Positions 1 through 32,620 of a DNA stretch of 64,000 bases are shown piece by piece (position 1 is the stretch's first letter; every line of letters begins with the position of its first letter). The notes under the pieces are model-generated. The model did not search any database. It was given only the letters and a program-made list of their open reading frames with translations, and had not been told where the DNA came from. The stretch comes from an uncultured Anaerolineales bacterium (GTDB lineage: Bacteria; Planctomycetota; Phycisphaerae; FEN-1346), in contig CAYWVR010000001.1 of NCBI GenBank assembly GCA_964461715.1, positions 80,784 through 144,783 on the forward strand, in the 5' to 3' direction. Position numbers and translations under genes: made by a program.

Positions 1-879
1 CGCGATGGGCACGGTCCAGTGGCTTCCGACCGTCCGGTTGAACTGGCGGACGTAATCGACGAGGACCATCAGGACCGCCACCCAGAGGACGCTCCGCGCC
101 GCAAAGAGGTTGGCGACGTCGAGGTCCTGGGCGACCTGGCGCTCCTGCGGCGGGAGGCTGATGCCCTCCTGGTCGTGCTCCGCCGGCGCGGCCTCGTCCC
201 CCGAGGGGGGAAGGCGCTGTTCGGTCAGGGCCTTCTCCTCGCCCTCGCGGACGCGTTCCGCGTTCGGGTCGCGGCCCTGCTTGCCCCGTTCCCGGTATGC
301 GTACCCGGGCGGGGCGGCCTCGCCCTCGTCGGTCACGGTGACGACGGTGCCGTCGCTCATGACCTTCTCGACCTTGGCCTTCTCGACGCCCGCGAGGTCG
401 AGCGGGTCGGCGGCGGTATCCTCGGCGAAGGCGATGTCGGCGGCCTGGTCGCGGAGCTTGCGGAGCTCTTTCTCGCGTTCGAGGCGGCGGGCCTCTTCGG
501 CGGCCTTCAGGGCCTCGGAGATGTCCTCGCGGATGACCTGTACGTAGTAGGTGCTGTTGAGGTCCGCGAGGAAGAACCCCGCCAGGGCCAGCCCGATGGC
601 CGCCCAGTGGATCGCCCGGACGCGGCGCGTGAGCACAAGCACGATTCCGGCCAGGACGACCGCCACGACGACCGAATCGTCCGGCCACTGGAAATCGGCC
701 CATCGAAGCACCGCCTGCCCCAGGAAGGCCGTGATGAGCACGAGGCCGTAGGCGGCGATGTAGAAGAGCGGCTGGCGCCGCCGCACGACGAGCATCGCGA
801 TCACCACGAGGGCGGCGGCGTAGACGAGGATCGCCAGGATCCCGCCAACGCCGAGATAGGTTGGGAGCTTGCCGATCAT
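1..879 (-). CDS. Membrane protein, last visible gene of the ExbBD/TPR operon (3' end outside the window)
   Basis: Absent from the ORF track; translated by hand. ATG at 879 overlaps the upstream TGA (ATGA) and the frame is open to base 1: MIGKLPTYLGVGGILAILVYAAALVVIAMLVV..., about 4 hydrophobic helices, a charged coiled-coil segment (KAAEEARRLEREKELRKLR), then another TM helix. Confidence 0.85.
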   Translation of the reverse strand, partial: MIGKLPTYLGVGGILAILVYAAALVVIAMLVVRRRQPLFYIAAYGLVLITAFLGQAVLRWADFQWPDDSVVVAVVLAGIVLVLTRRVRAIHWAAIGLALAGFFLADLNSTYYVQVIREDISEALKAAEEARRLEREKELRKLRDQAADIAFAEDTAADPLDLAGVEKAKVEKVMSDGTVVTVTDEGEAAPPGYAYRERGKQGRDPNAERVREGEEKALTEQRLPPSGDEAAPAEHDQEGISLPPQERQVAQDLDVANLFAARSVLWVAVLMVLVDYVRQFNRTVGSHWTVPIA

Positions 880-2429
880 CGTCGGTATTGCTTCGTCTCT
901 TCAAGGTACTGGGTGAAGGCGTAATGGACGATGTTGATGCCCATGTGGAACGCGCCTTTGGCGAGGCGCGGGTCCATGCCGCTGTGGCCGGTCTTCCAGG
1001 CGTCGTTGATGTCGCCGGGATGATAGAAGACGCACCAGCGTCCCTGGTGCTTGATGCCGAGGGCCCGCCGCCCGCCGTGGTGCCAGAGGGGCGGGGCCCC
1101 GTCCGGGAACTGGTACGGCTGCTGGAAGATGGGGTCGTCGTCGGCGATCACGAGGAGCCGCTTGTCCGGAAAGAGCGCTCGCACGAACGAGCGGAAGCTG
1201 CGGTCCCAGCTCTGGGTGCCCGCGTCCGCGAAGAGCATGCCCCCGTCGAGGCAGTAATCGCGCAGCGACCGCAGCTCGCGGCTGGAGACGCTGATGCGGC
1301 CCGATCCGGTCATGTAGACGAAGGGGGGCGCGAAGCCCTTGGGGTACTTGTCGAGGTAGTGGATGGGATGGGCCTCGCTGGTCTTGGCGGTCCGGAGGCC
1401 CGACATCCGCTGGAGCTCTTCGAGGAAGTTCAGATCGGCCCGGGAGTAGGCGTCCATGCCGTCGTCCCAGTCCGGGCCGTTGTACTGGAGTCGGATGAAG
1501 CGGATGGGATGGCGTCCGACGCCCTCGGGCCATCCGCCCGACTTGCCGCCCCCGGCGCCCATGGCCCCGTGGACGGCGTTGACGTCGGCGTTGTAGACGA
1601 GTTGGGTATCCTCGTCGATCTCGCGGGAGATTTCCGATTCGTCCAGGTCGGGCACGTGGAAGTAGATCATGGCGTTCGGGTTGAGGACGAACTTTTTCGG
1701 CTTCTTCTCGCGGGGCTTGACGAAGGCGACCTTGGCGACCGACGGCGTGCCCGAGCCGTGGGGGACGTAGTACGGATCCACGCAGCCCCAGAGCTGCAGG
1801 AGGATCGGCCCCGCGATGACGGCCAGGTGCGTGGCGACGCTTGTCAGCCAGCTCTTGCGGTAGCGGGGGTCGCGGCCGTGGGTGCGGACGTTCTCGAGGA
1901 TGCGGTCGCCCATGGCCCACGTCTCGACGTCGCGTCGGGCGTAGAGGTTCAGCGTGGCCGCGCGCCAGGAGACCACGTGGAGGTACGCCAGGATGGCCAG
2001 CCACCCGAGCGCCGGCCACAGGTAATGCCACCGGGCCTCCCACACGTCGAGGAACATGCCGATGTTGAGCTTGTGGTCGGCGGCGACGGCGGTCACCTTG
2101 AAGACGGCGTAGACGTAGACGAGCAGGGCGAGGTAGGCGACACCGTAGCCCTTGCGAAGGAAGCGGAGGCTCGGCTTGCAGCGAAAGAGCCCCGCCACCG
2201 CCGCCAGAGCCATCAGGCCCGCGCACGCGCCCAGGATAACCGCGACGCCGGTGAAGAAGCTCGGCATCTCGGCGTTGGTGAAGGGGCCGCGGAAGTCGGC
2301 GCTTCGGACGAGCAGGTCGGCCAGGCGGTAGGGCGCGAGGATGGCATGGTAGCCCATCACCCCCGCCAGCGTGGCCGGCGGGACGGTGAGGAAGGCGGGC
2401 AGGGCGATGTGCTCGAGCGTGCGTCTCAT
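876..2429 (-). CDS. Polytopic membrane protein with TonB-like S-x3-H helix and C-terminal DUF4159 domain
   Basis: About 4 N-terminal TM helices, then SWLTSVATHLAVIAGPILL and a Lys/Gly-rich linker. The C-terminus has DUF4159-type motifs (PFVYMTG, GGMLFADAG, DDPIF, GRWCVFYHPGDINDAW, GINIVHYA). Confidence 0.8.
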   Translation of the reverse strand: MRRTLEHIALPAFLTVPPATLAGVMGYHAILAPYRLADLLVRSADFRGPFTNAEMPSFFTGVAVILGACAGLMALAAVAGLFRCKPSLRFLRKGYGVAYLALLVYVYAVFKVTAVAADHKLNIGMFLDVWEARWHYLWPALGWLAILAYLHVVSWRAATLNLYARRDVETWAMGDRILENVRTHGRDPRYRKSWLTSVATHLAVIAGPILLQLWGCVDPYYVPHGSGTPSVAKVAFVKPREKKPKKFVLNPNAMIYFHVPDLDESEISREIDEDTQLVYNADVNAVHGAMGAGGGKSGGWPEGVGRHPIRFIRLQYNGPDWDDGMDAYSRADLNFLEELQRMSGLRTAKTSEAHPIHYLDKYPKGFAPPFVYMTGSGRISVSSRELRSLRDYCLDGGMLFADAGTQSWDRSFRSFVRALFPDKRLLVIADDDPIFQQPYQFPDGAPPLWHHGGRRALGIKHQGRWCVFYHPGDINDAWKTGHSGMDPRLAKGAFHMGINIVHYAFTQYLEETKQYRR

Positions 2430-2441
2430 CGCGGAGCCGGG

Positions 2442-2897
2442 TTACCTCGCACCCTCGGGGTTCGTCTCGTCGATGCCCAGGCCCGTGGTGCCGGGGACCT
2501 CGGGGATCTCCTCGGGATCGGCCGTCTCCGTCAGCTCGCGCACGACGGGGTGATCGCGCTTGTCCCCGGGGATGCCGGCGGTGGGGTCGTCCTCCGGGAC
2601 GGGTTTCTCCTCGGGGGCAGGCTCCGTCTCGTTGGGCGCGGGCTTGGCCTCGGCGGCGGCTTCGGCGGCGGCCTTGGCAGCCAAATCCGCCTCCTTGCGC
2701 TCGCGCTGCTCGACCTCGCGTTTCTCGACGCGCGACGGGTCGAGCTTGTCCAGCACGTAGCTGTAGCTCGTGCCGCCGATCACCAACACGTGCAGGCCGA
2801 CGGCCAAGGCGAGACCGATGACGAAGATGTCGATCCGCCGGAATCCGGCGACGAGCTTGTCGGGGCTGAGGCGCTGAAGGTCTTTATCCTGGGTCAT
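2442..2897 (-). CDS. Small TolA/TonB-like single-pass protein (151 aa)
   Basis: Start re-called at ATG 2897 (ATGA overlap with exbD stop). TM segment LALAVGLHVLVIGG, then an Ala/Glu/Lys helix and a Pro/Glu-rich tail. Confidence 0.7.
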   Translation of the reverse strand: MTQDKDLQRLSPDKLVAGFRRIDIFVIGLALAVGLHVLVIGGTSYSYVLDKLDPSRVEKREVEQRERKEADLAAKAAAEAAAEAKPAPNETEPAPEEKPVPEDDPTAGIPGDKRDHPVVRELTETADPEEIPEVPGTTGLGIDETNPEGAR

Positions 2898-3355
2898 GGC
2901 ACGATCTCCGGCCCGAGGCCGGCAGCACGGCTCGGGCGTTCGGGTTTCCCTTCCTCGCCGACGGCGGCGATGATGCCGCCGGCTTCGCTGATGGCGTCGA
3001 GGACCGGTTCGAAGGTGGCTTTCGGGATGGTCCGGTCGCACTCGAACCAGACGGTGCGGGTCCGCGTGTCCTCCGGGGGCACGTCCCTGAGGCGGATTTC
3101 GAGGGCGTTGGTGAGGGCCTTGGCCGTGGGCACCTTGCTCGTGTCGAGGTAGATGATGCCGGCCTCGTCGATCTTGACCTTGATGCGGCTCTTTTCGAGC
3201 TGCTCGACGTCGCGGGAGACGGGCGGGGTGACCTTGACGCCGGCGTCTTTGGCGATGTCGGAGACGAGGACGAAGAAGATGATCAGGAGGAAGGCGATGT
3301 CGCCCATGCTCGTCAGGGGGATGAGGACCTTGGGTTTTCGGCGGCGGGCCTTCAT
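2894..3355 (-). CDS. exbD: ExbD/TolR family biopolymer transporter
   Basis: IPLTSMGDIAFLLIIFFVLV TM with the conserved Asp; ExbD-type periplasmic domain. Confidence 0.9.
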   Translation of the reverse strand: MKARRRKPKVLIPLTSMGDIAFLLIIFFVLVSDIAKDAGVKVTPPVSRDVEQLEKSRIKVKIDEAGIIYLDTSKVPTAKALTNALEIRLRDVPPEDTRTRTVWFECDRTIPKATFEPVLDAISEAGGIIAAVGEEGKPERPSRAAGLGPEIVP

Positions 3356-3792
3356 TCGCCGTCGCCTCCTTCCTCGCCGTCGGCCTCGCGGACGATGACG
3401 AGGTTCCCGCCCGCCTTGGTGACGGCGGCCATGATCTCGAAGTACTCCTGCCAGGAGCAGCCGCCGGTGGCTTCAAAGAGGACGACCTTCTTCGGGTCGT
3501 CGTCGGGGAGCTTCCGGAGGTCCATGTCCGCGAGTTCTTCGCGGAGTCGCGGCATGGAGAGGACCTTGTCGTCGAGGCGGATCTGGCCCTCGTGGAGCTG
3601 GACGGTGGTGGTCTTCTCGGGCTCCTCCTCGCTCTTCTCGCCGGCGGGCAGCTCGCTTCGGAAGCCCATCGTCTTGGTGATGGCCAGCGTCAGGAGGAAG
3701 AAGATGATGAGCAGGAATGCGATGTCGGCGAACGAGGTCGTGGGGACCTCGTCGATCCGGTTGCCGCGATCGAGTTTGCGTTTCTTCGCCAT
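3352..3792 (-). CDS. exbD: ExbD/TolR family biopolymer transporter
   Basis: Start re-called at ATG 3792 (MAKKRK); VPTTSFADIAFLLIIFFLLT TM with the conserved Asp. Confidence 0.9.
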   Translation of the reverse strand: MAKKRKLDRGNRIDEVPTTSFADIAFLLIIFFLLTLAITKTMGFRSELPAGEKSEEEPEKTTTVQLHEGQIRLDDKVLSMPRLREELADMDLRKLPDDDPKKVVLFEATGGCSWQEYFEIMAAVTKAGGNLVIVREADGEEGGDGE

Positions 3793-3820
3793 GGCGATCC
3801 AGCTTTGCGTCGCGGCTGTT

Positions 3821-3856
3821 GCCGCGGGTCGGAGACCTGCCGCACCGACCCGCGGC
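3821..3856. repeat. Perfect 12-bp inverted repeat (REP-like hairpin) between exbB and exbD
   Basis: GCCGCGGGTCGG (3821-3832) and CCGACCCGCGGC (3845-3856), 12-nt loop. Confidence 0.7.
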
Positions 3857-3882
3857 CGCCGCTCCAAGCGGGGCCGTCGGGA

Positions 3883-4536
3883 CTAGCCGCGGGCCGTGCG
3901 TTTGGCCTCGGTGGCGACGAAGTCGAGGAGCTCCGAGGAGGCCTCCTCGATCTCCAGGTTGATCTTGTCGGCCACCGACTGGAAGACGTTGTAGGGGATG
4001 ACGGCGGCCAGGGCGATCAGGAGGCCCGTCGCCGTGGTGATGAGGGCCTCGGAAATGCCCAGGGCCACGCCCTCGGCTTCGGCCCCGGAGGCCGACAGCT
4101 CCGCGAAGGCCCCGATCATGCCGGTGACCGTGCCGGTCATGCCGAGGAGCGGGGCCGCCGAGCCGATCGTCGCCAGGATGCCCAGCCGCTTCTCGACCGC
4201 GCTCATCGCGTGCTGTCCGTAGTCGTCCATCGCCTTCTCCATGACGTCCGTCAGGTCCGCCGGACGGTCCGCGAGGTCGCGGTGCTTGGCGTAGGACTGG
4301 AGGCCCGAGAGGAGCACCGCGCTGACGGGCCCCGGCGTGTGGGTGCAGAGGCGCGCCGCATCGTCAATCCGTTCCTCCTCCATCAGCGCGAGGACCCGGG
4401 CCCGCAGGGACCGCGTGTCGTGCTTGGAGTTGGCGTAGAAGGCCCAGATTCGGTCGATCAGCACGCCGAGGGTCAGCACGCTGCACACCAAGAGCGGGAT
4501 CATCAGCGGGCCGCCTTCGAGAAGATACTTAAGCAT
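3883..4536 (-). CDS. exbB: MotA/TolQ/ExbB proton channel protein
   Basis: GGPLMIPL; APLLGMTGTVTGMIGAF and GISEALITTATGL signature helices. Start re-called at ATG 4536. Confidence 0.93.
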   Translation of the reverse strand: MLKYLLEGGPLMIPLLVCSVLTLGVLIDRIWAFYANSKHDTRSLRARVLALMEEERIDDAARLCTHTPGPVSAVLLSGLQSYAKHRDLADRPADLTDVMEKAMDDYGQHAMSAVEKRLGILATIGSAAPLLGMTGTVTGMIGAFAELSASGAEAEGVALGISEALITTATGLLIALAAVIPYNVFQSVADKINLEIEEASSELLDFVATEAKRTARG

Positions 4537-4948
4537 GGTCCGAATCCTCACAATGGATCTGGGCAAGCACTTGGCAGGCGTCCAGAGGCATCATACGGAG
4601 CTGTGTGAGCGTGGCCCCGTCGGCCGGGGCGAGCACCAGCTCGCCGGTCACGTGATTGTAGAGACTCTCGCGGAGGAGGCGGTACGGCACCCGCTCGGCC
4701 CACGGGCGCGGTCCGTGGGCCACGAGGACGAGGGCTTCGACCGTGGCGAAGCAGCGGAGCCGCCGCCGGCCGAGCCAACTGCCCACGTCGACCGGGGTGC
4801 CGGTGCGCAGGGCCTCGAAGACGTCGTCGCCTTCGAGGGTTTCGGCGGCGAAGGCGCGGGCACGGCGTCCGAGGCGGGCTCGGTCGAAGGCCTCGTCGGG
4901 CGCCAGCGGCGTCCGGCGGGCCGGGGGAAGGTTGACCGCCTGTGTCAT
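4529..4948 (-). CDS. Hypothetical cytoplasmic protein (139 aa), translationally coupled to exbB
   Basis: ATG 4948 (MTQAVN); stop overlaps the exbB start; beta-rich core plus C-terminal helix, no signal peptide. Confidence 0.65.
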   Translation of the reverse strand: MTQAVNLPPARRTPLAPDEAFDRARLGRRARAFAAETLEGDDVFEALRTGTPVDVGSWLGRRRLRCFATVEALVLVAHGPRPWAERVPYRLLRESLYNHVTGELVLAPADGATLTQLRMMPLDACQVLAQIHCEDSDHA

Positions 4949-5070
4949 AGTCGTTCCGTGAATGGCCAGCCGGTCGGCCGGCGCGCGACAGGCCCCCCGA
5001 CCTGCCGCGCCCCCGGTCTCTGTCTGGAGCACGGGCGAACCAGCCGCCCGTGGCCTCCTCGCTTGATGCC

Positions 5071-8000
5071 CTAATCGATCTTCAGATCGGTCAGGCGTTC
5101 GTCGGTGAGCCTCCCGCGGGCGAACTTGGCCCACTTCGTCGTCGGGTAGTCCCAGGTGAGCTTCTTGAAGACGATGTAGGCGTTGCGGAGGGCGTCCCGG
5201 TTCGTCTCGGCGCTCTTCATGTACGAGTCGCCGCACCAGTACATGCTCTCGGCGACGAGATCCTTGTCGGCGCCGGGCTTCTCGATGACCTTCTTGAAGG
5301 TCTTGACGGCCTCCTCGTACTCGGCGGCCTGCATGAAGCACTGGGCCGCCAGGACCGTGGTCTTATCGGCCAGGCGATGCTCGGGGAACCGTTCGGCGAG
5401 GCGTCCGAAGACCTGGCCGGCGGTCTTGAACATCTCCTGGCTCTGCATGACGACCTTCTCGCGTTCGATGGGGTCTTCCCGGGCCTCGGCCCGGGTCTTG
5501 GCCTCCTTGCCCTTGACGAGGAAGTACTGTCCGAGGCGAGCGATCGTCTCGGCCACGAGCTCGTTGTCCGGGTAGCGGTAGGAGAGCTTGACGTACTCCT
5601 CGCAGGCGGTGTCGATCTTGCCCATCTTCTCGAAGACGAGGGCCTTCTTGTACTGGGCCTTGGGGGCGTAGATGGAGTCGGGGTAGGAGGCGACGATGTC
5701 GGAGAACCGGTTGATGGCCTCGACGTAGAACTCCTGCTTCATGTCCTCGTTGACGGCGTCGTTGGCGAACTCGAGGGCGAGGTTGGCCAGGAGGTAGTCG
5801 GCCTGGGCCCGGGCTTCGGTATCGGGGAAGTCGCGGATGGCCTCCTCCAGGAGCTTCTTGCCCTGCATGATTTCCCGCCGCGCCAGGCTCTGCTGGTCCA
5901 GCTCCCGGTGCCGCTTGGCCAGCTCGAAGTAGGCCTCGGCGATGGTGAACTGGGTCTGCATGGCGATGGCGGGGTCCTTGAAGCGTTTCGTAAAGGGCAG
6001 GACCTCGCCGTCGGAGCCCTTGTACACGGAGACGAGGCGTGCCAGCGGCGCCGGCTCTTGCTCCTTCGGCGGGGTGTAGGTCACGGTGACCTCGTCGCCG
6101 TAGGTGACGGGCAGGGCGAAGGGGTCCCGGGCCTCCTCGGCCTCATCCCTGTAGACGATCTTGGCGAATCCCTTGAAGACGCCGCTGTGGGAGAACGTCT
6201 CGGTGACCGAGGCCTTCTTGGCCGTGCCGCTGGAGGTGGTGACGTCCAGCTCGACGGTGTCCTTGTCGTCGGAGGCGTCGCGCGTGGGGTCGATAAGGCG
6301 GAAGTAGATGACCTCGCCGACGTAGATCCCGTCGACGGTCTCCTGGTAACGGCGGTCCATGATGTCGAAGAAGGCGTCGGCGGCCAGGGCGATGCGCCGC
6401 TGGAGCCAGTGGGTCTGGCCCTGCGGGTCGGTGTAGCGGTAGCCGATGAAGACGTCGTCGTCGCCCTTGATCTTGAGGACGGGCGGCTCCTCCGGGCCGA
6501 CCGTCTCGTCCTCGAGGGCCAGCGTCTCCTCGGGCAGCTTGCCCAGCTCCATGGGGATGCTGAAGGTGTAGCGGCCGTCGTCGAGGGCTTCGAGGGCGTA
6601 GGGGTTCGAGCGGACGAGCACGCTCTTGTAGCCCGGCGGGGGCGTCAGGCTGCCCGCGTTCGAGGGGCGACCCGTCAACCGGATCGTGCCGGGCACGTTT
6701 ACGTTGAACTCGGCTTCCTCGGCCAGACCCATGGCCTTGCGGCCCGAGGAGGTCTGCACGAAGATCTCGGTGGACGACTCGGGGCTCTTGGCGATGGCCG
6801 GGAAGAGGACCTCCACCAGCAGGGGCAGCCCGATCATGCCCTCGGCGGGCTCGTCGGGGCGGGGCAGCTCGGGCCACGTGGCGACGATGGTCCGCGTCAC
6901 GGGGACGTACTCCTCGAATTCGCCGGCGGCCTCCTGTTGCTGGGCTTGGACCTCCTCCTTCTCCTCGGCCGCCAGCGGCATGCTCTCGATGTCGTAGGCC
7001 CGCAGCTCGGGCGGCTCGAACCAGACCTGCTCGACGATCTGCGTCCGGTTCCAGGGGATGCCGGGGTCGGTGTTTTCGGCGTCGACGTAGGTGAGGATGA
7101 TGTCGTCGCCCTTGACGATGCGGATCTCGCTGTCGCGCCGGGGCGCGGCCTCGACGGGGAATACGCTGCCGAGGAAGATGCCGGAGTGCTCGGCCGTCTC
7201 GAGGGCCCTGTGCTCGGTGGGCCGGCCCTCGCTGGTGCGGACGGTGAACGGGACGGTGTCGAGCTTGTCGGAGACGTCCATGTCGGGGTCGTTGATGAAG
7301 ACGTTGACCTTGTCGCCGGGCTCGAATCGGCGCATGGGGATGTAGCGGGCCGTCCGCTCGCCGCGCCCCGACATCTGGTACTCGACGAACGTGGCGCTGA
7401 TGACGGCGTTGGTGTAGGTGGCCGTCAGGAACGCCTCGTGGTGCTCCTTGCCGCGCGTCACGAACAGCGGGTCCTCGTAGCTGACGGTGACGCGGTCGCC
7501 GGGCACGATTTCGAGGACCTGGTTCTCGCGCAGCTCCATGAAGTCGGTCTCGGTCGGCAGGACGGTCTCGCCGGCGGCGTCGGTGAGAGTGATCTTGTCG
7601 ATGGCCGGGGCGTCCGTCTCGAAATCCACCAGGACGAGCCGCACGACGCGACCCCGGCTCCCGGCGGGGAACTCGACGGTGAAGGCCCCGTCGCCCTCTG
7701 CGGCGGTGATCTTCGCGGGGTCGACGGCCAGGGCCGCGGCCACCTCCGGCTTGCCGGCGACGTCGAACATGGCGGCCGGGCAGGGGACCATGTAAGGCGG
7801 CTCCGGCGTGTCGCAAAGGACCTCGAACTCCGGCGCCGCGGTGCGCGTGGCGATGACGAACACGTCGACGACGTGGACGCCCTTGCCCAGGCTCCGCTTG
7901 ATCATCGGCAGCGGCGGGGCCTCGCCGCGCGATCCGCCGCGCGGCACCCGGCCCAGCTCGCCGTCGATGGCCCAGACGTAGGTGATGCCGTCGGTCTTGC

Positions 8001-11000: not shown

Positions 11001-13050
11001 TGACGTCGTTGCGATGGATGCGATAGAGCGACCACTCGCGGCGCTTGAAGATCAGCGAGAGCAGGTTCTCCAGCCTGTCGTTGCCGCCGCCGGGCTCGTA
11101 GCTTTTCAGCAGGTCGGCCAGGGCGGCCATTTGGACGTCGAACGGGGCGACGTCGCGCGCGCCGTTGAAGATGTAGGCGAAGACGGCCGCCGCGAACGGC
11201 GTGCGGCCATTCGTGTAGTCCTTGACCATCGGGTAGAGGTCGGTGGCCGCCCGGGCATAGGCGGCGGCGTCCTTGCGGCGCTCGGCGAGGACGGCCTCGG
11301 CGGTCTTGCGGCAGAGGTCGTTGGGGGCCCGGGCGGGGTCGCCGCCGGTTTTCATGGAGACCTTGAAGGCCTCTTCGAGGGGCGAAATCTGTTCGAGCCG
11401 GGCGAGCTCGACCTCGGCGTCCTTCTTGCGGGCCTCCTTGCGGAGGTTGTCGGCCCAGCTCTTGAAGCTGCGGTAGACGCCCTGAACGATCTCGTTGCGG
11501 TCGCGCTGGGCGAAGGGCACCCAGTCGAGGGCCTCCAGGTGCGGGATGAAGTCGGTCTTCTTCTCGCCCGTCGTGCGCCAGGCCGACTCGAGGCAGCGCT
11601 TGGCGGCCTCCGGGTCGAAGATGACGGCGGGGGACTGGGAGAGGTACCGCTTGCCGAAGTGGACGAGAGCCCGGTGATAGACCTCGTCGGCGGGGGCCTT
11701 CTCGCCCTCGGTGTGGAGGGTCCGCCAGGCCGGCCACAGGCGGCGGCTAAGGACCTCGTACGCCTCCGTGAAGTCCAGGTGCCAGGCCTCGTTGCGCATG
11801 AGGTGGTCGACGGCCTTCGCGAGGTCGTCGCCCCCGGCGGCGAGCGAGTTGATGACGGCGGCGGAGCGGCTCGGAACGTTCTTCAGGAACGCCGCCTGCG
11901 TCTGGATGAGGGCGGGGTCGGCGATGTTCGTGGCGAAGGTGACGTCGCGGGCGCCCTCGGCCTTGGCGAAGAGGTCGGGGTACTTGCCTCCCAGCTCGGC
12001 CCACTGGACGGGCTCGGCCAGGAGGCTGCTCTTGTTGCGCACCAGCGAGGCGTTCAAAAGGGCGGTCCGCTCCTCGCCACCCAGCTTCTCAAAGGCCCAG
12101 ACGAACAGGGCCCGCTTCGGCTCGACGAGCTTCGACCACGCATCGTCGCGGAAATCGTCGCCCCCGGCCAGCCCCCGGACCACGTCCTCGACGGTCTCGG
12201 CGGTGGGGTAGGCTTGGACGTAGGCGCGGGCGGCCTCGGCGACCCCCTGGAAGCTCCTGGCCAGGGCGGCGGGGTCCTTGCCCGCGCTGCTCGCCTCGAA
12301 CTCCAGATTGGCCGCATAGAACCCGTACCGGGCCGAACGCTGCTTCGAGTCGCGGATGGCGGGGACGATCTTGCGGATGGCGGGGAGGGCGGCGTACTGG
12401 GAGGTGCGCGCGTGTCTTACCTGGTTCATCAGATAATCGAGATGCTCCCAGTAGAGGAGCCGCTCCTGCTCCAGGGGGAGCTTGTCGCCCATCACGGTTG
12501 CGAGGCCTCGGGCCAGGGCGGGGAAGTCCTGTCGCTTGGCCGCCTGCTCCAGGTACCAGGGCTCGAACTTGCGATAGGCGGCGGTCTGGCGGAACTTCTC
12601 GCCCTCGGTGCTCATGAAGAGGTACGCGTCGTCCTCGGCGCCGAGGAGGTCGATGTCGATCATGAGCATGAGAGCGGCGGCGCGGCTGGCGACCTCGCCC
12701 GGCTTGGTGAGCTTGAGGTAGGTCTTGTAGCGGGAGACGGCGCCGCGGTGGTCGCCGGCCTCGAAGGCGTTCTCGGCGGCCAGACGCATCACCTCCGGCG
12801 AGGGCTGGAAGTGATGGGCCAGGTAGCCCTTCATGGCGAGGGAGACGGCGTAGCTGCGGCCGAGCTCGCGGCCGGACTGGAGGAGCTTGAGGGCATCCTC
12901 CTCGCCGGCCCCGCCGGGGTTCGTCTGGACCTTCTGGAGGAGCTGCTCGAAGGCCTCGATCTTCTCTTCCGGGGCGTCGGCGGCGAGGGCGAGCGTCGCG
13001 GCGCCGAGAAGCGCCAGGGCCATCCACGTGAGTGGCAAAGTGGTCTTCAT
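5071..13050 (-). CDS. Giant exported TPR protein (about 2660 aa) with repeated Ig-like modules and putative F5/8-type C and PA14-like domains
   Basis: Signal peptide MKTTLPLTWMALALLGAATLALA after an AGGGGA SD (alternative ATG at 13059). TPR/BamD-like helices (YPDSIYAPKAQY) and repeated LxETxxHxGxFxG modules. Confidence 0.88.
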   Translation of the reverse strand: MKTTLPLTWMALALLGAATLALAADAPEEKIEAFEQLLQKVQTNPGGAGEEDALKLLQSGRELGRSYAVSLAMKGYLAHHFQPSPEVMRLAAENAFEAGDHRGAVSRYKTYLKLTKPGEVASRAAALMLMIDIDLLGAEDDAYLFMSTEGEKFRQTAAYRKFEPWYLEQAAKRQDFPALARGLATVMGDKLPLEQERLLYWEHLDYLMNQVRHARTSQYAALPAIRKIVPAIRDSKQRSARYGFYAANLEFEASSAGKDPAALARSFQGVAEAARAYVQAYPTAETVEDVVRGLAGGDDFRDDAWSKLVEPKRALFVWAFEKLGGEERTALLNASLVRNKSSLLAEPVQWAELGGKYPDLFAKAEGARDVTFATNIADPALIQTQAAFLKNVPSRSAAVINSLAAGGDDLAKAVDHLMRNEAWHLDFTEAYEVLSRRLWPAWRTLHTEGEKAPADEVYHRALVHFGKRYLSQSPAVIFDPEAAKRCLESAWRTTGEKKTDFIPHLEALDWVPFAQRDRNEIVQGVYRSFKSWADNLRKEARKKDAEVELARLEQISPLEEAFKVSMKTGGDPARAPNDLCRKTAEAVLAERRKDAAAYARAATDLYPMVKDYTNGRTPFAAAVFAYIFNGARDVAPFDVQMAALADLLKSYEPGGGNDRLENLLSLIFKRREWSLYRIHRNDVKMALRMNEVLGEALATHVDKGRLPVELFAWFRGTRVGNGWSHKDWGARIYDQIIAKRLLDKVDWRPSDIRSATVAYMWMVRHDVAGLEEKYPVESHFDDAFVEEARKTGFLDRRYWDYGRDTEKKVVNCAAEVLDGHKTLPFGYNGEGVVYSRSDFWDWQARALGADPKPRDAMTRAVEATWGKTRFDTYAMGRAYFSTEADLKTPAGRKDFFDRLDTYTQRQVDVPARVTPPYMGALVDFGDPTKATKAEVDILLKLFPFGVPSVWHEGWHFEDLALNLHRALVAQDRATRLYELAPFFWGIARDTRSSSLAQELASLARGLLDEGHYDLAYVYSSGGLDVLRTSISSDVKTGLTTVRSKTIGNIGNVIPVKRGEREYPIYVAQASYLTGKFTTAWDTYAANRALVTEMYKDLDPNFLIWLIGKHTELRQFEPAEQLAQRMIQWFDSVSGSFDAEVRGRLQLAYADIALARREFPRARALYEKIAVDPEFEGTDAKRDAELAVAEVDRLTGRFDEAAERLEKLARAKDPYLQTESFYHLALVSFDQSEYAEALDYLQQVFDRAPDHANAKILEARANVKMNKLEEPTDVEIGPVTRQRFLIPSKPLKITLEDRNLTVVGPSTDIQMRVWTESGDEEIFSLVPFGDTKTKFRGTIPTTLAPAKKASGTLELLGSDTVYYDYAEAFKKEHRITDSEVYSLTVRTDARLDISSGKILSDEEREALALEREIRARLAMERGQEGPSISLNTVRPWNQIKPGNDIKVRVEDLDRSRTPKADTLKVRIAASSGDTIAEYTLTETGTHTGVFEGSVPTASGQARAYASDSDAGKDPNMVISAKDYPAWVGLPGSPRPQTFSVDLNDNVALGKMAIKADVPGRKFKNFRVQTSLNARSFTTVGAWPNPHTPWDGALELTFAQFGAGRDAPSTTNFDALKDWMETGYISTGRGKGTSKPKTFAAKWDRGVMGHSNKLSLSDDTRYIAHLRGTFTMDRRQVRTFQLDHKGKTDGITYVWAIDGELGRVPRGGSRGEAPPLPMIKRSLGKGVHVVDVFVIATRTAAPEFEVLCDTPEPPYMVPCPAAMFDVAGKPEVAAALAVDPAKITAAEGDGAFTVEFPAGSRGRVVRLVLVDFETDAPAIDKITLTDAAGETVLPTETDFMELRENQVLEIVPGDRVTVSYEDPLFVTRGKEHHEAFLTATYTNAVISATFVEYQMSGRGERTARYIPMRRFEPGDKVNVFINDPDMDVSDKLDTVPFTVRTSEGRPTEHRALETAEHSGIFLGSVFPVEAAPRRDSEIRIVKGDDIILTYVDAENTDPGIPWNRTQIVEQVWFEPPELRAYDIESMPLAAEEKEEVQAQQQEAAGEFEEYVPVTRTIVATWPELPRPDEPAEGMIGLPLLVEVLFPAIAKSPESSTEIFVQTSSGRKAMGLAEEAEFNVNVPGTIRLTGRPSNAGSLTPPPGYKSVLVRSNPYALEALDDGRYTFSIPMELGKLPEETLALEDETVGPEEPPVLKIKGDDDVFIGYRYTDPQGQTHWLQRRIALAADAFFDIMDRRYQETVDGIYVGEVIYFRLIDPTRDASDDKDTVELDVTTSSGTAKKASVTETFSHSGVFKGFAKIVYRDEAEEARDPFALPVTYGDEVTVTYTPPKEQEPAPLARLVSVYKGSDGEVLPFTKRFKDPAIAMQTQFTIAEAYFELAKRHRELDQQSLARREIMQGKKLLEEAIRDFPDTEARAQADYLLANLALEFANDAVNEDMKQEFYVEAINRFSDIVASYPDSIYAPKAQYKKALVFEKMGKIDTACEEYVKLSYRYPDNELVAETIARLGQYFLVKGKEAKTRAEAREDPIEREKVVMQSQEMFKTAGQVFGRLAERFPEHRLADKTTVLAAQCFMQAAEYEEAVKTFKKVIEKPGADKDLVAESMYWCGDSYMKSAETNRDALRNAYIVFKKLTWDYPTTKWAKFARGRLTDERLTDLKID

Positions 13051-13105
13051 CGAATCCATTCCCCTATGGCGTATCGCGTTCCGGTAAACGGGTGACGGGC
13101 GCGGC

Positions 13106-15367
13106 TCATCGCTCGGCCGACGCGCTGGCGGTCTCGGCCGCTTCCAGGGCTTCCTTGACCTTCTCCAGCAGGTCCCGGGCCTGCTTGGCGTGCTGGCTGT
13201 TGGGATACTCGGTCACGAGCTGCGAGCACTTCTCGTAGGCCTTCCGGAGGTCGCCCATGCGGTAGGAGACGAGCACCCACTTCAGGAGCATCGAGTCGAG
13301 GAACTCGGCGTCCGGGTAGTCCTGGAAAATCTGGTCCAGGAGGTCGGAGGCCTGGGCGTAGTCCTTCGTCTCGATGTAGTAGTCCACGAGCTTCGCGAGC
13401 GACTCGCCGGCGAACCCGCTGTCGGGATACCGGTCGGCGCAAGTCTTGTACTGCTGGATGGCGGCCTCCGGGATGACGAACTGGCTCTTGGGGATGCCCG
13501 CGTCGGTGGCCGCGGCCAAGGCCTTCGTCTCGATGCACCGGGCGATCATGAACTGGGCCTCGGCCTTGGCCATCGAGTTCTCGAGCTTCAGGATCTCCTG
13601 GAAGACCCGCGACGCCTCGTCGTACTCCTTGTTCTCGAATCGGATGCGTCCGATGCCGACGAGGGCTTGGTCGACGAAGGGCGAGTCGGGGTAAAGCCGG
13701 TTGAAGAGCTGGCAGGTCTGGATGGCGGAGGCGTAGTCCTCCTGGACGATGTACAGCTCCCACTTGAGCTTGAAAGCCTCTTCCTTGAGGTTCGAGGGGA
13801 TGGGGCTCTCGATGCGGATGATGGGATCGACGCGGTCCAGGCCCTCGCCGGCCTTTGAGCGGGCCCCGTCCATCAGGCCCATGCTCTTGAAGATGCGGGC
13901 CAGCTCCAGGAATGCCGTGGCCTCCACGAGGTTCTTCCTGGCCCGCAGGATCGGGTCGGGCACGACGTTCTGCCGCGGGGTCGGGCGGGTGGTCAGCTCG
14001 CCCGCGACCTTCAGCGACGCCGTGGCCTCGCGGGGCGACTCGCCGCCGATGTGCAGGTCGTCGATGTAGGTGGCCACGACCTCGTCCCCGAGGGCGCAGA
14101 CGAGACGGTCGTCGGTCTTGTCGACCGGCTGGTCCTCGCGGTAGCGGTCGATCATGACGCTGCCGCCGAAGCGGCCCGTGTGGACGGGCTTCTCGCCCAG
14201 CTCCGTCAGCTTGAGGACCACTTCGTCGCGGATCTGGAAGGTCTCCTCCTCGCCGCGCCGGAGCCGTTCCAGGTCGATGCCCAGCTCGCCGATCGTGTCC
14301 TCCTGGTACCGGGAAACGATGCGGATTTCGGCCCGGTCGGCCTTGGGGCCGGTATCGAGGTCGGCGTCGTGGAGGACGGCAAAGAGGGGCTGGCCGAGGA
14401 AGGCGGCGCTGGCCGCCGTGTCGTAGGTGCCCGTGGTGAAGCTCACCGAGCCGGTGGAGACGACCCGGACGGTCTTGGCGCGCAACACGTCCTTCTGGCC
14501 CTCCTTCGTGTTGTCGTCGAAGTACTTGACGGCGATCGTATCGCCGCCGACGACCTGGAGGATGCCGTCGCCGGCCTCGGGGGGGGCGATCTCGGTGGCC
14601 GTCGAGGTGATGAACAGGCCCTGGCTGCCCGAGAGGGGGATGCACCGGAGCGTCTCGGTGTCGCCCTTGCCGCTCGCGACCTCGACCTGGATGTCCCGGC
14701 CGAGGCGGTGGAGGACCGGGAGGTCGGCGTCCTCGATCTTGCAGTAGAAGCGGCGCCCGGCCTCGACGTACTCGACGGTGGGGCTCGTCGGGTCGACGAA
14801 GGTCCCGACGAGGCTGAGGTTGCGGATGGCCTGCTGCCAGTTGCCCTGGGCGAAGTGGCACATGCCGATGTAGTAGTAGGCCTGGTTCGCCCAGACAGTG
14901 TTGGGATAGGCGTCGGTGATCTTGCGGAGGATGGGGAACGCCGAGCTGTACTGCTTCATCTGGAAGTAGGCCACGCCCGTCAGGTACATCGCCTCGAGAT
15001 ACATCTCCTGCTGCGGGCCCTTGAGCTCCTTGTCGCCGCGCTCCAGCTCCTTCAGGCGCCGCAGGTACGCGATGGCCTGGGCTTGCTGGTACTGGTCGAG
15101 GTGGTGCTTGCCGAGCTCGAGGTAGGCCTCGTAGCGGACGGGACTGTCCCCGTGCTGCTCGATGATGGTTTCGAGCATCTTGACGGCCCGGTCCTTCTCG
15201 CCGGCCAGGAGCAGATCCTGGGCCTTCTTGAGGAGCTGCTTGGCGGCGAAGTCGCTCTCGGGGTTTCCGGCGGGCGCGGCGGGGGCGGGTTCCTCCTGCG
15301 CGTGCGTCCCGGCCGTCAGGCCGAGCACGCCTGCCAGGATCAGGCTCCCTACGATCCATCGTCTCAT
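13106..15367 (-). CDS. Exported TPR-Ig-Ig-TPR protein (753 aa)
   Basis: Start re-called at ATG 15367 (MRRWIVGSLILAGVLGLTAGTHA signal peptide); YPNTVWANQAYY and YPDSPFVDQAL TPR motifs. Confidence 0.88.
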   Translation of the reverse strand: MRRWIVGSLILAGVLGLTAGTHAQEEPAPAAPAGNPESDFAAKQLLKKAQDLLLAGEKDRAVKMLETIIEQHGDSPVRYEAYLELGKHHLDQYQQAQAIAYLRRLKELERGDKELKGPQQEMYLEAMYLTGVAYFQMKQYSSAFPILRKITDAYPNTVWANQAYYYIGMCHFAQGNWQQAIRNLSLVGTFVDPTSPTVEYVEAGRRFYCKIEDADLPVLHRLGRDIQVEVASGKGDTETLRCIPLSGSQGLFITSTATEIAPPEAGDGILQVVGGDTIAVKYFDDNTKEGQKDVLRAKTVRVVSTGSVSFTTGTYDTAASAAFLGQPLFAVLHDADLDTGPKADRAEIRIVSRYQEDTIGELGIDLERLRRGEEETFQIRDEVVLKLTELGEKPVHTGRFGGSVMIDRYREDQPVDKTDDRLVCALGDEVVATYIDDLHIGGESPREATASLKVAGELTTRPTPRQNVVPDPILRARKNLVEATAFLELARIFKSMGLMDGARSKAGEGLDRVDPIIRIESPIPSNLKEEAFKLKWELYIVQEDYASAIQTCQLFNRLYPDSPFVDQALVGIGRIRFENKEYDEASRVFQEILKLENSMAKAEAQFMIARCIETKALAAATDAGIPKSQFVIPEAAIQQYKTCADRYPDSGFAGESLAKLVDYYIETKDYAQASDLLDQIFQDYPDAEFLDSMLLKWVLVSYRMGDLRKAYEKCSQLVTEYPNSQHAKQARDLLEKVKEALEAAETASASAER

Positions 15368-15512
15368 GGCATTCCCCTGGTTCTGGGATCTCGTGATCTG
15401 TGCGTGCGGGATGCGGGAGGCACCATCCGCGGCCCCATCCCGCACCGTCCGGGGTCTGTAACCACGCGGAGCGGCGGTGGTATTGCCGAATCGCGCGTCG
15501 CGGCCGATCCGC

Positions 15513-17276
15513 CTATTCGGCGTCGACACCGCCTTCGATCCGCGTCACCCCGCGTTTCTCCAGCTCGTGGTGGGCGCGGCTGGACTGGCCGCTCTCGGGA
15601 TACTTGTTGGTCACTTCGCGGAAGACGGCGATGGATTCCCTCTTCTGGCCGGCCTTGTCATAGAAGTAGGCGATGCGGATGCAGGCCTCGGGCGCGTCCC
15701 GGGGGAAGAAGCTCTCCACCTGCCTCAGCTCGCGGATCGCCTGGCCCAGCTTCTTCATCTGGAAGTAGCAGTTGGCGATCCGCCAGCTGGTCTCGGGGGG
15801 CTTGTTGATCTGCTGCCAGCAGGCCAGGGCCTGGTCCCACTGCTTCTCGGCCTCGTGCATCTCGGCCTTCAGGGTGAGGGCCTCGGTCGAGTACGCCGGC
15901 ACCCCCGCCATCTCCGCCGCCAGCGGGATGCCGTCCTCGTGCCGCTTCGTCCCCGCGTAAAAGCGCAGCAGCTCCATCCGGCCGCGCGGCTCGTCCTCCA
16001 TGCTGCGGCAGAGGGTCTTGACGATGTCCTCGTCCTTCTCCCGGAAGTAGCGGGCCAGCTCGGCGCGGCGGTCGTCGGAGAGCTGGTCGAGGCGGATTTT
16101 GTAGAAGCAGTTCTTGCCCATCTCCGCGTCCTTGACGCGGTCGTAGAGCAAGGTCATGAGCCTCTCGATCTCCGGGTTCTTCATCCGCTCGAACTGGAGC
16201 TTGTTGTAGTACTCCATGACCTTGCCCTTGTGGGCGGCATAGAGGCCGATCCAGCGGACGATGCGGGCGAAGTCGCCCTTCCCCTGATGCTCCTTGAAGT
16301 GGGCGTCGAGGCGGGCCATCCACTTGGCCGGCTCTTTCTCATGGGCCAGCCGCCACCCGGCCAGCGTGATCTGGACGTCGTCGTCGGCCTCATAGCGCCC
16401 CTGGAGGGCGTCGGCCCAGTACTGGAAGTACCGCTCCCGGAGCTCCGTCTGGTCCTCGCCGAAGTCCCGGGCGTGGTGGTTGACGCGGTGGATCACGGTG
16501 TTCCAGTAGTCGCGACTCTCGCCGACCTCGGCCGACACCTTCTGCGGGCCACGCCTGTCGAATGTGCCGCATGCCGCGTAGAAGTCCCGCAGGGCCGCCT
16601 CGTCGGGCTTGATGCGGACGTAGTACTCGACGGCCTTGCGGATGGCCTCGTTGGCGGCCCCGGGATTCTTGGTGCGGAAATCGAGGGCGACCTGGCGGTA
16701 GTAAACGGCGGCCCGGTCGTGCTCGCCGGCGCGGCTCATGTAGTCGCCGATCTGGTTGATGGCCCCGGCGGCAAGGGGGTGCTTGGAGTAGGCCTCGTCG
16801 TCGGCCATCTCCACCCACGTCTTGACGGCCTCCTCCTCGCTCCCGTTCTCCCAGTGGCACTGGCCGATGTGGAACTTGGCGGCGGCGGCGTACTTGACGC
16901 GGTTCGGCCAGTAGTCCAGGACCTCCTTGTACCACTTGATGGCGTCGAACCGCTTCTCGTCCCGGTGCAGGCACCGGGCCTTGCGGAAGACGGCGTAGGG
17001 GAGGGCCTGGGAGCGCGGGAACGTGAGGATGAACGCCTCGTACTGGGCGAACGCGTTCCGCCAGTCGCCCTTGCCGTAGGCCTGGTCGGCCTGGTTCAGG
17101 CTGTGGCCCTCGAAGGTGTCGAGCTGCTTGAACTCGTCGCTGGAAAGCTGGACCTCGTCGCCACTCGAGCTGCGGCGACGGGCCGTCGCGCGGGACGGCA
17201 CGGCCGCCAGTGCCGCCAACGCCGTCGCGGCGGCCAGCGTCCACACGAGGATCGGTCGGTACGATCGCATCATCAC
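15513..17276 (-). CDS. Exported TPR protein (587 aa), first gene of the operon
   Basis: Signal peptide; FPRSQALPYAVF, YPESGQSSRA and other TPR helices. Confidence 0.85.
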   Translation of the reverse strand: MMMRSYRPILVWTLAAATALAALAAVPSRATARRRSSSGDEVQLSSDEFKQLDTFEGHSLNQADQAYGKGDWRNAFAQYEAFILTFPRSQALPYAVFRKARCLHRDEKRFDAIKWYKEVLDYWPNRVKYAAAAKFHIGQCHWENGSEEEAVKTWVEMADDEAYSKHPLAAGAINQIGDYMSRAGEHDRAAVYYRQVALDFRTKNPGAANEAIRKAVEYYVRIKPDEAALRDFYAACGTFDRRGPQKVSAEVGESRDYWNTVIHRVNHHARDFGEDQTELRERYFQYWADALQGRYEADDDVQITLAGWRLAHEKEPAKWMARLDAHFKEHQGKGDFARIVRWIGLYAAHKGKVMEYYNKLQFERMKNPEIERLMTLLYDRVKDAEMGKNCFYKIRLDQLSDDRRAELARYFREKDEDIVKTLCRSMEDEPRGRMELLRFYAGTKRHEDGIPLAAEMAGVPAYSTEALTLKAEMHEAEKQWDQALACWQQINKPPETSWRIANCYFQMKKLGQAIRELRQVESFFPRDAPEACIRIAYFYDKAGQKRESIAVFREVTNKYPESGQSSRAHHELEKRGVTRIEGGVDAE

Positions 17277-17374: not shown

Positions 17375-18448
17375 TCAGCCGCCGTCGTACGCTTGGCGGC
17401 AGGCATCGACGAACGCCTCGATGTTGGCGATGGGCACCTCAGGCTCGAGGGTGTGGGTGGGCGAGAGGATCAGGCCGCCTCGGGCGCCGTACCGCGAGAC
17501 GCACTCGCGGACCCGGCGGTGGACGTCCGCGGGCGTGCCGAACGGCATCGTCGACTGCGTGCCGATGCACCCGTCGAAGATGAGCCGGTCGCCCCAGCGG
17601 CGATGGACCTCGTCCCCGTCGAGGCACTCCGGCTGGAGGGGGTTCAGGATGTCGAGGCCCATCTCGATCATCTCGCCGATGATATGGAAGATGTTCCCGT
17701 CGCTGTGATAATGGATGCGGAGGTCAGGCTTGATCTCTTTGGCCGCCCCCCAGACGCGGGCCCAGCGGTTCCCGATGAAGTGCCGCCACATCTCGGGGCT
17801 GAACATGAGCGACTTCTGGTTCCCGACGTCGTCGCCGCAGTAGACCGCGTCCAGGCCGTGCTCGGCCGCGAGGCGGGCCGTGACGAGGTTGTTCTCGGCC
17901 AGCCGCTCCAGCAGACACTCCGCCCACGCGGGCCGCTCGATCATGTCCATCAGGAACGGCTCGTAGCCCCGGATCTGCCACGCGATTTCGTACATGTGCC
18001 CCGCCCATGTGCTCGTGGGGCGACCCTCGGCCCGGGCCTTCGCCACCGCCTCGGGGTAGTGGTCGGCCGTGTAGGTCGAGAGGTCGGGCAGGGGGTAATC
18101 CTCAATCTCGGCGAGACTCGTGGCGTTCCGGAGCGGCGAGACCGTCCCGATGAAGTGATATAGCCCCGCCGGCACCCGGGCCACGCCCCGTCCGTCAATC
18201 CGCGTCCCCGGCGGCAGTTCGACGCCGTGCCAGTAGCGATCGTAGTCGATCGGTTCGGCCCCCTCGGGGGGGCGCGGGGTCATCCGCCACGACGAGAAGC
18301 ACCCGTAGTGCCGCGCGATGTCCCCCTCGCCGCCGACGTGGTCCTTGAGCCGCCGCTCGAGGTCCGGCGTGCAGGAGAAATGGTAGAGCAGGCGGTCGGG
18401 CCGCCGGTGGGCGACCGTGTCGAGCCAGACCTCGCGATCGGTGGGCAT
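17375..18448 (-). CDS. Uroporphyrinogen decarboxylase (URO-D/CIMS-like) family protein
   Basis: GDDVGNQKSLMFSP, HSDGN, LNPLQP, GCIGTQSTMPFGTP, GGLILSPTH motifs. Confidence 0.9.
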   Translation of the reverse strand: MPTDREVWLDTVAHRRPDRLLYHFSCTPDLERRLKDHVGGEGDIARHYGCFSSWRMTPRPPEGAEPIDYDRYWHGVELPPGTRIDGRGVARVPAGLYHFIGTVSPLRNATSLAEIEDYPLPDLSTYTADHYPEAVAKARAEGRPTSTWAGHMYEIAWQIRGYEPFLMDMIERPAWAECLLERLAENNLVTARLAAEHGLDAVYCGDDVGNQKSLMFSPEMWRHFIGNRWARVWGAAKEIKPDLRIHYHSDGNIFHIIGEMIEMGLDILNPLQPECLDGDEVHRRWGDRLIFDGCIGTQSTMPFGTPADVHRRVRECVSRYGARGGLILSPTHTLEPEVPIANIEAFVDACRQAYDGG

Positions 18449-32536: not shown

Positions 32537-32620
32537 GGTTGGGCTCCTGTCGGGTTCGGAGTATTCCAGATAAAAATAGCGAGGGCCGCCCCGAATGCAA
32601 GCGCAAGGCGCGCGCGTCGC

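Follow-up and report, generated by a model that had tools for sequence, protein, structure and literature searches.

We analysed a 64,000-nucleotide window of the genome of an uncultured planctomycete (GTDB lineage Planctomycetota; Phycisphaerae; FEN-1346), namely positions 80,784 to 144,783 of contig CAYWVR010000001.1 (G000:C1:80784-144783, where G000 is the host genome), for an operon at its left end that encodes ExbB- and ExbD-family proteins together with three exported tetratricopeptide repeat (TPR) proteins. When the sequence was read beyond the window, the operon was found to comprise 13 co-oriented minus-strand genes and to extend 4.3 kb past base 1. Ten of these genes form a core, here called the module: TPR587, TPR753, a giant TPR protein, a small pleckstrin homology (PH)-like protein, ExbB, ExbD1, ExbD2, a TolA-like anchor, a DUF4159 protein and a membrane protein of 475 amino acids (aa) (Table 1). 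Stop and start codons overlap in a four-base ATGA at ExbD1/ExbD2, ExbD2/TolA-like anchor, DUF4159 protein/475-aa membrane protein and LamG/PA14 lipoproteins, and the PH-like gene stops 2 nt ahead of the ExbB ATG. An initial annotation, made from the letters of the window, had described ten or more co-oriented genes over more than 17 kb with overlapping stop/start coupling; both features were recovered, the overlaps from the coordinates and Met-first alignment, and its gene identities and domains agreed with Pfam and the open reading frame (ORF) calls. Reading on past base 1, which it had proposed, completed the last membrane protein to 475 aa and brought in three lipoprotein genes (DUF4159, LamG and PA14), after the last of which a convergent GH38 alpha-mannosidase gene closes the operon end. 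The unit is genuine and conserved, a variant of the envelope machines driven by ExbB/TolQ that had no name before.

The order of the core was kept at 15 other Planctomycetota loci and three Verrucomicrobiota loci, which bears out the expected conservation of the neighbourhood in genomes of the Planctomycetes-Verrucomicrobia-Chlamydiae (PVC) group, to which the host, a planctomycete, was correctly assigned from the sequence. The phylum follows from one hit that recurs with identical contig number, coordinates, E-value and bit score in the host's own phylum sample and in a sample drawn around a named Planctomycetaceae metagenome-assembled genome; DUF1559, tried as a marker of planctomycetes, gave four weak matches that did not decide it. 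The full-length DUF4159 protein was found in 3 of 40 relatives, namely G002 and G006, which account for 2 of the 21 genomes from the host's family, and G036, which belongs to its class; all three carry the same genes in the same order. With the N-terminal region of the giant as a marker, 16 of 400 further Planctomycetota genomes, in four families, were positive; of 16 loci from 14 of them, 12 have the module, read from TPR587 through to the DUF4159 protein, one is cut off by contig ends and three are solo giants. In Verrucomicrobiota, the giant occurred in 5 of 301 genomes (a sample drawn around a Rubritalea metagenome-assembled genome), and five loci from four of these genomes gave three full modules and, in G448, two solo giants; the loci of the marker-positive genomes G192 and G438 (Planctomycetota) and G695 (Verrucomicrobiota) were not examined. 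At the 18 syntenic loci, tblastn detected TPR587, TPR753 and the DUF4159 protein in every case and the PH-like protein in 12. No paralogue of the module-specific proteins was found elsewhere in the host genome. As far as sampled, the module is PVC-specific, and because it is rare its role would be accessory rather than housekeeping.

Table 1. Genes of the operon and its upstream flank; positions are those of the window unless a contig is named.
Feature	Position	Strand	Remarks
TPR587, exported TPR protein, first gene of the conserved module	15513..17276	-	587 aa; Pfam TPR_6
TPR753, exported TPR-beta-TPR protein	13106..15367	-	753 aa; Pfam TPR_6 + YfiO
Giant exported TPR/beta protein	5071..13059	-	2662 aa; signal peptide
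Small PH-like cytoplasmic protein	4529..4948	-	139 aa; predicted fold
ExbB	3883..4536	-	217 aa from the Met conserved in orthologues; PF01618
ExbD1	3352..3867	-	ORF 171 aa, likely start 3792; PF02472
ExbD2	2894..3355	-	153 aa; PF02472
TolA-like anchor	2442..2897	-	151 aa; His-bearing transmembrane helix
DUF4159 transducer, five transmembrane helices	876..2429	-	517 aa; PF13709
Polytopic membrane protein, first 293 of 475 aa	1..879	-	runs on 549 nt past base 1
DUF4159 lipoprotein, beyond base 1	G000:C1 79389-80246	same strand as operon	285 aa; PF13709
LamG lipoprotein, beyond base 1	G000:C1 77803-79533	same strand as operon	576 aa
PA14 lipoprotein, beyond base 1	G000:C1 76469-77806	same strand as operon	445 aa
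URO-D-like gene, upstream of TPR587	17375-18448	co-oriented	

The motor genes belong to established families at some distance from the named types. ExbB matched PF01618 with 102 bits; its best-scoring named family in NCBIfam was tolQ (TIGR02796, 117.1 against a cut-off of 221), exbB (TIGR02797) scored 80 against a cut-off of 206.2, both being missed, and the closest sequence matches in the PDB were ExbB (6e-17) and TolQ (2e-14). ExbD1 and ExbD2 matched PF02472 (61 and 62 bits) and scored 24.5 and 24.9 against tolR (cut-off 127.3) and 21 and 18 against ExbD_1 (cut-off 152.95). The channel residues are intact, as the initial annotation had stated: aligned to Escherichia coli ExbB, the protein has the equivalents of Thr148, Glu176 and Thr181, and both ExbDs carry the transmembrane Asp, which is kept in all listed ExbD1 orthologues. 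Across 14 module ExbBs the equivalents of Thr148 and Thr181 were present in all and that of Glu176 in ten. At each locus, in Planctomycetota and Verrucomicrobiota alike, the first ExbD gene matched ExbD1 better and the second matched ExbD2 better, and because two orthologous ExbD series run through both phyla, the sequences point to an ExbD1/ExbD2 heterodimer.

In a 33-row tree, the 14 module ExbBs formed one clade (93/95) that contained none of seven ExbB paralogues of the host genome and was sister to E. coli TolQ plus ExbB (97/93), on long branches and with only three named references and no Agl sequences in the tree. The expectation that this ExbB would group apart from the canonical clades held with respect to the same-genome paralogues and is at most half decided with respect to Ton, Tol and Agl; the protein belongs to a normal ExbB/TolQ-type motor in a lineage of its own. 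The orthologues came from the search of relative genomes, and a contig scan of genomes with ExbB gave only nine loci at 31-35% identity and no orthologues. At two planctomycete loci, G275:C2:18959-38958 (L084) and G336:C120:18803-36678 (L085), a different ExbB of ~300 aa and a single, more canonical ExbD accompany the retained scaffold genes, TolA-like anchor and DUF4159 protein, which looks like a motor swap inside the module.

TPR587, TPR753 and the giant each start with a signal-peptide-like helix (residues 8-26 in TPR587), and YbgF/CpoB and BamD were the best NCBIfam models for all three. TPR587 matched TPR_6 (3e-17) and scored 82 bits with tol_pal_ybgF (TIGR02795), under the cut-off of 90.1; TPR753 matched TPR_6 (3e-26) and exceeded the cut-offs of both tol_pal_ybgF (106 bits vs 90.1) and the BamD subfamily (107 vs 81.4); and the giant reached 69 bits with tol_pal_ybgF, again under 90.1, the TIGR02795 scores being summed over several repeats in proteins far larger than CpoB, which has ~260 aa in E. 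coli. The giant consists of an N-terminal region of ~1150 aa of no known family, TPRs at about 1150-1270, repeated beta-rich domains and a C-terminal YbgF/BamD-like TPR region at about 2395-2660. Its N-terminal region (residues 300-1100) had only 136 matches among 1.84 billion representative proteins, its full-length matches all measured 2637-2838 aa, and no sequence match in the PDB was found for residues 30-1150 or 1290-2390. By BLASTP, residues 163-458 and 450-788 of TPR753 align to residues 1205-1496 and 2291-2651 of the giant, and TPR753 thus appears to be a small-scale version of the giant's C-terminal half. Solo or second giants that have no motor genes next to them were seen at L082 (G200:C36), L086 and L087 (G412) and L105 and L106 (G448).

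Two inner-membrane proteins have the helix motif of a force transducer. In the TolA-like anchor, a transmembrane helix with the pattern Ala32-x-x-x-His36 precedes a variable linker of Ala, Pro, Glu and Lys and a conserved C-terminal peptide of ~30 aa; the 10 aligned sequences, which have no globular C-terminal domain, share Ala32, His36 and Ser44 without exception and retain the C-terminal motif. The anchor gave a weak match to a TonB N-terminal model (NF008082, 3.5e-4). It was missed by tblastn at eight loci, at all eight of which an ORF with the His helix, the linker and the C-terminal motif lies in the same position. At L088 (G366:C2), the TolA-like gene between ExbD2 and the DUF4159 gene is split across two frames, by a frameshift or an assembly error.

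The second such protein, the DUF4159 transducer, matched PF13709 with 119.4 bits (119.3 for the 285-aa lipoprotein; gathering score 25.9), and in an alignment of 16 sequences (its own and 15 orthologues) His201 does not vary, with Ser197 kept in at least 90%. The same S-x-x-x-H pattern occurs in E. coli TolA, read from its own locus, as Ser18-His22. The AlphaFold2 (AF2) model (predicted local distance difference test, pLDDT, 76) shows a confident four-helix membrane bundle plus the helix at 194-213, a Lys/Pro linker of ~80 aa (221-297) with pLDDT almost all below 50, taken as disordered, and a C-terminal alpha/beta domain with pLDDT of about 70-93 by 10-residue blocks. The top Foldseek match of this domain was 4i66 (Hoch_4089; E 1.8e-10, target TM-score 0.79), the next matches were class I glutamine amidotransferase and ThuA-like folds, and the IFT52 N-terminal domain, a type also reported in the Bacteroidetes gliding protein GldG, ranked 49th (E 0.085). 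Pfam identified no VWA family in the protein. Because no Cys is invariant in the 16-sequence alignment, we infer that the domain is not catalytic. Full-length relatives of 500-570 aa, 47-65% identical, occur in Planctomycetota, Lentisphaerae, Kiritimatiellia and Verrucomicrobiae, and the G036 protein, with only 348 aa, has the TolA/TonB layout of a single helix, linker and domain. The two TonB/TolA-like transducers of the initial annotation can be recognised in the 151-aa anchor and the DUF4159 protein, and the last membrane protein, which differs in topology, does not belong with them. A separate DUF4159 family is represented ~12-13 kb beyond base 1 (G000:C1:67592-68923), where two tandem DUF4159-like stretches share one 537-aa open frame; double-DUF4159 frames of ~520-600 aa recur in most relatives.

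Two further proteins of the core would lie wholly or partly on the cytoplasmic side. The 139-aa protein had no Pfam or NCBIfam match; its AF2 model (pLDDT 91, predicted TM-score 0.85) has ~7 strands and a C-terminal helix, all Foldseek matches listed from the PDB were PH/PTB/FERM-type domains (best E-value 0.014), and the ESM Atlas gave a lead to bacterial PH families (bPH_3), so that the protein is predicted to be PH-like at the level of the fold only. The 475-aa membrane protein had no match in Pfam, NCBIfam, the PDB (profile searches included) or the ESM Atlas, and its alignment shows helices at the N-terminus, then an acidic, periplasmic loop of ~145 aa, a Gly-Lys..Arg motif that is conserved, a further helix and, at the C-terminus, a conserved domain of ~200 aa, which by the positive-inside rule falls in the cytoplasm. 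A three-chain prediction of the PH-like protein with this C-terminal domain and ExbB scored 0.34 (runs 0.34, 0.00 and 0.49; best control 0.00) and fell to 0.00 when the domain was replaced, the runs sharing at least 8% of contacts with a partner pLDDT of at least 67. In the calibration, 58 of the 80 solved complexes passed, as did 2 of the 110 mismatched pairs, and scores of 0.60 or less came from only seven of the 80 solved complexes and from both passing mismatches, so that passes at this level are false more often than true; the run also used its own alignments and three chains, unlike the calibration set. The model lends weak support to a complex of the three.

The host genome (3.46 Mb, 93 contigs, 94% complete) was searched for the usual partners of such motors, and the claim that no receptor, TolB or Pal lies at the locus stood up to domain searches of locus and genome. 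Among the genes between a point 4.3 kb past base 1 and window position 21150 no TonB-dependent receptor was found, and PF00593 matched in the genome only on C10 and C21; no module protein contains TonB_C (PF03544), whose only two matches in the genome are likewise on C10 and C21. Both TonB_C genes adjoin the two receptors of the genome, one with its own ExbB/ExbD, and the Ton cluster on C21 comprises a receptor, two ExbB, two ExbD and TonB_C. TolB_N and FtsZ_C had no match in the 94%-complete genome, and the four OmpA matches are on C26, C5 and C27, with no OmpA/Pal gene on the module's contig, C1. Elsewhere, the host has a Tol-like cluster (C28:26198-36513, L111) of a 1126-aa TPR protein, ExbB, ExbD, a 176-aa protein and a 1303-aa PD40 protein, a vWA-type cluster (vWA, von Willebrand factor A; C16:70576-79253, L110) of a Zn-ribbon-vWA protein, TPR protein, ExbB, two ExbD and a 984-aa TPR protein, pairs of ExbB and ExbD genes on C20 and C6, and on C27 a MotA-like gene, with eight MotA_ExbB matches in total. 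The module itself thus has no known outer-membrane partner.

The accessory lipoproteins give some context. The LamG and PA14 lipoproteins share one N-terminal domain, which follows the module or a solo giant in four genomes (the host's own, G002, G200:C36 and G599). The convergent GH38 alpha-mannosidase gene lies just beyond base 1 (L001:7001-9688, +), and a GH29-type alpha-L-fucosidase gene (window 31241-32620, -) lies 14 kb upstream of the operon. The lipoproteins together with the nearby glycosidases hint at glycans, and of the outputs suggested in the initial annotation (glycan capture, envelope shaping, motility) only the first has such a hint in its favour. On the other flank of the operon, the URO-D-like gene had no tblastn match at any related locus examined, and the window from 24716 to 62326 is ordinary, with an ABC-F ATPase, two TPR proteins, an AroD-AroE fusion, SerA, an M48 peptidase, AddA/AddB-like helicase-nucleases and a PgpA-domain protein. 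Spurious ORFs are common because the GC content is ~68%, and true frames were chosen by third-position GC. An ORF at 13047-15359 that overlaps TPR753 was rejected as a wrong frame with no Pfam match; the true frame of TPR753 is an 807-aa ORF (13106-15529), in which a start at Met55 gives 753 aa.

The closest published layout is itself of PVC origin. According to Williams-Jones et al. (2025, Mol Biol Evol, PMC12204202), PVC clusters are known in which a TPR gene is followed by a tolQ-like gene, two heterologous tolR-like genes and a vWA force transducer; their function is given as unknown and the transducer is non-TonB. The module shares with these clusters the TPR gene, one TolQ-like and two different TolR-like proteins, the lack of a receptor, the PVC lineages, and a transducer in which a transmembrane helix with the conserved His is joined by a disordered linker to a globular C-terminal domain other than TonB_C. 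The module differs in that this C-terminal domain is DUF4159, glutamine-amidotransferase-like and not vWA; the transducer has four extra transmembrane helices; a second anchor that lacks a C-terminal domain is added; and there are three TPR proteins including the 2662-aa giant, the PH-like protein and the 475-aa membrane protein. The host, moreover, keeps its separate vWA-type cluster on C16. The idea of a distinct machine therefore stands as far as separation from the host's Ton and Tol-like systems is concerned, whereas the layout is not unprecedented, given the TPR-tolQ-tolR-tolR clusters of PMC12204202. We found no paper that describes the module in the literature on DUF4159, ExbB/ExbD or TolQ/TolR with TPR, and giant genes in Planctomycetes, although the supplements of PMC12204202 and of the gliding study cited below (PMC3169522) may list overlapping loci.

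We consider the module to be, probably, a self-contained PMF-driven trans-envelope machine of the ExbB/TolQ family, distinct from the Ton and Tol-like systems of the host. Its contacts and output, as we infer them, would be as follows. An ExbB pentamer would hold an ExbD1/ExbD2 heterodimer and form the proton-conducting motor, on which two inner-membrane proteins would dock via TolA/TonB-type helices with a conserved His. One, the 151-aa anchor, would present a flexible linker ending in the conserved acidic peptide; the other, the DUF4159 protein, would use its 80-aa disordered linker to bring the putatively non-catalytic glutamine-amidotransferase-like domain into the periplasm. Both would transmit force or a conformational change to a scaffold in the periplasm, composed of three Sec-exported TPR/beta-sandwich proteins (587, 753 and 2662 aa), which would take the place of the TonB-dependent receptor or of TolB-Pal as the recipient of force. 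The PH-like protein and the cytoplasmic domain of the 475-aa protein would form a cytoplasmic side that has no equivalent in Ton and Tol. For the output, our best guess is surface or periplasmic glycan handling via the accessory LamG and PA14 lipoproteins.

Several observations weigh against this proposal in whole or in part. Four of the 14 module ExbBs have Thr or Ile in place of Glu176, and the ExbB of G275 and G336 has Gly at the Glu position (read by eye from unaligned translations). Because these two genomes carry one ExbD, the two-ExbD motor is not obligatory, and the sister relationship of the ExbB clade to E. coli TolQ plus ExbB makes the motor one of ordinary ExbB/TolQ type. The term trans-envelope derives from the exported scaffolds alone, since no outer-membrane component was identified in the locus. 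The LamG and PA14 genes are missing from most loci, and the patchy distribution speaks against a core envelope role.

The rival with most in its favour, which we nevertheless regard as unlikely, is that the module corresponds in PVC bacteria to the Agl-Glt core complex, perhaps as its true homologue, and would power gliding, adhesion-site movement or a surface-coat process. In Luciano et al. (2011, PMC3169522), aglR, aglQ and aglS form one operon with gltC, gltD and gltE (TPR) and gltG (TonB-like), whose function outside myxobacteria is described as unknown, and signal peptides are stated for AgmU, AglT and AgnA. Measured against that definition, the gene content of the module is a close match, with one TolQ-like ExbB and two TolR-like ExbDs, three exported TPR proteins and a proline-rich TonB- or TolA-like single-pass anchor in one operon, and the distribution is similarly patchy; the resemblance of the DUF4159 fold to the IFT52 N-terminal domain, although low in rank, fits the same reading. 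The comparison is one of gene content and not of sequence, and in it neither GltA, B, H or K nor a CglB-like adhesin, nor the cytoplasmic parts (GltI/J, AglZ), were recognised in the module, whereas the giant, PH-like, DUF4159 and 475-aa proteins are extra and have no stated Glt counterpart. No Agl- or Glt-named NCBIfam family was among the matches, the existence of such models being unchecked. With regard to behaviour, we know of no report of gliding in the host lineages.

Still less likely in our estimate is Tol-Pal-like envelope maintenance or division, in which CpoB/BamD-like TPR proteins would stand in for TolB-Pal and tether or constrict the outer membrane in cells that lack FtsZ. The module resembles Tol-Pal with CpoB (YbgF) in that ExbB scores best with tolQ among named families, its clade stands as sister to E. 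coli TolQ plus ExbB and the anchor is TolA-like; the TPR proteins may be of YbgF/CpoB type, all three having YbgF/CpoB and BamD as best matches and TPR753 exceeding both cut-offs; the failure to find FtsZ_C or TolB_N in the 94%-complete genome also agrees with it. Set against this, the module has neither TolB nor Pal, with no OmpA/Pal gene on C1, its TPR proteins run from 587 to 2662 aa, the tolQ and tolR equivalog cut-offs were missed widely, and the host has a separate Tol-like cluster with a PD40 protein. The module is also too rare within its phyla for housekeeping, given that the giant turned up in only 16 of the 400 Planctomycetota genomes and 5 of the 301 Verrucomicrobiota genomes sampled, and the full-length DUF4159 protein in only 2 of 21 genomes of the host's own family.

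An ordinary Ton system serving receptors encoded elsewhere, with the TPR genes as unrelated neighbours, is very improbable and close to refuted: Pfam assigns ExbB and ExbD, the families share the Thr/Glu/Thr and Asp residues and the TolA/TonB-type His helix followed by a linker, and the genome has two TonB-dependent receptors, but the module has no TonB_C or receptor and two different ExbDs, its ExbB reaches 80 against the exbB equivalog cut-off of 206, the host's Ton genes adjoin its receptors elsewhere, and the TPR proteins, giant, DUF4159 protein and membrane protein hold their order with the motor across two phyla.

Beyond the self-contained trans-envelope machine that we favour, a more far-reaching proposal is tentative and, in our judgement, doubtful, if less so than any of these rivals: the module might be a fourth functional class of ExbB/TolQ machine beside Ton, Tol and Agl-Glt, in which the motor would pull a periplasm-spanning TPR/beta-sandwich scaffold of ~290 kDa via docking-peptide and amidotransferase-like transducers while the PH-like protein gates the cytoplasmic side. 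Its output might then be receptor-independent capture, movement or release of glycans or macromolecules at the PVC surface, and the LamG and PA14 lipoproteins might serve as interchangeable adaptors for cargo.

Motors of the ExbB/TolQ type, with a 5:2 stoichiometry, are known to power the import of nutrients in Ton, the constriction of the envelope in Tol and gliding in Agl, and each new output shows how one rotary motor adapts to different jobs. As a clearly delimited unit of ten genes shared by two PVC phyla, the module offers a new type of transducer domain, DUF4159, hitherto without a function, and a cytoplasmic PH-like partner lacking in Ton and Tol. DUF4159 and a conserved family of 2.7-kaa proteins thereby become testable. 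Because PVC bacteria are major degraders of glycans and have unusual envelopes, an energised periplasmic scaffold could bear on the uptake or display of macromolecules in these organisms.

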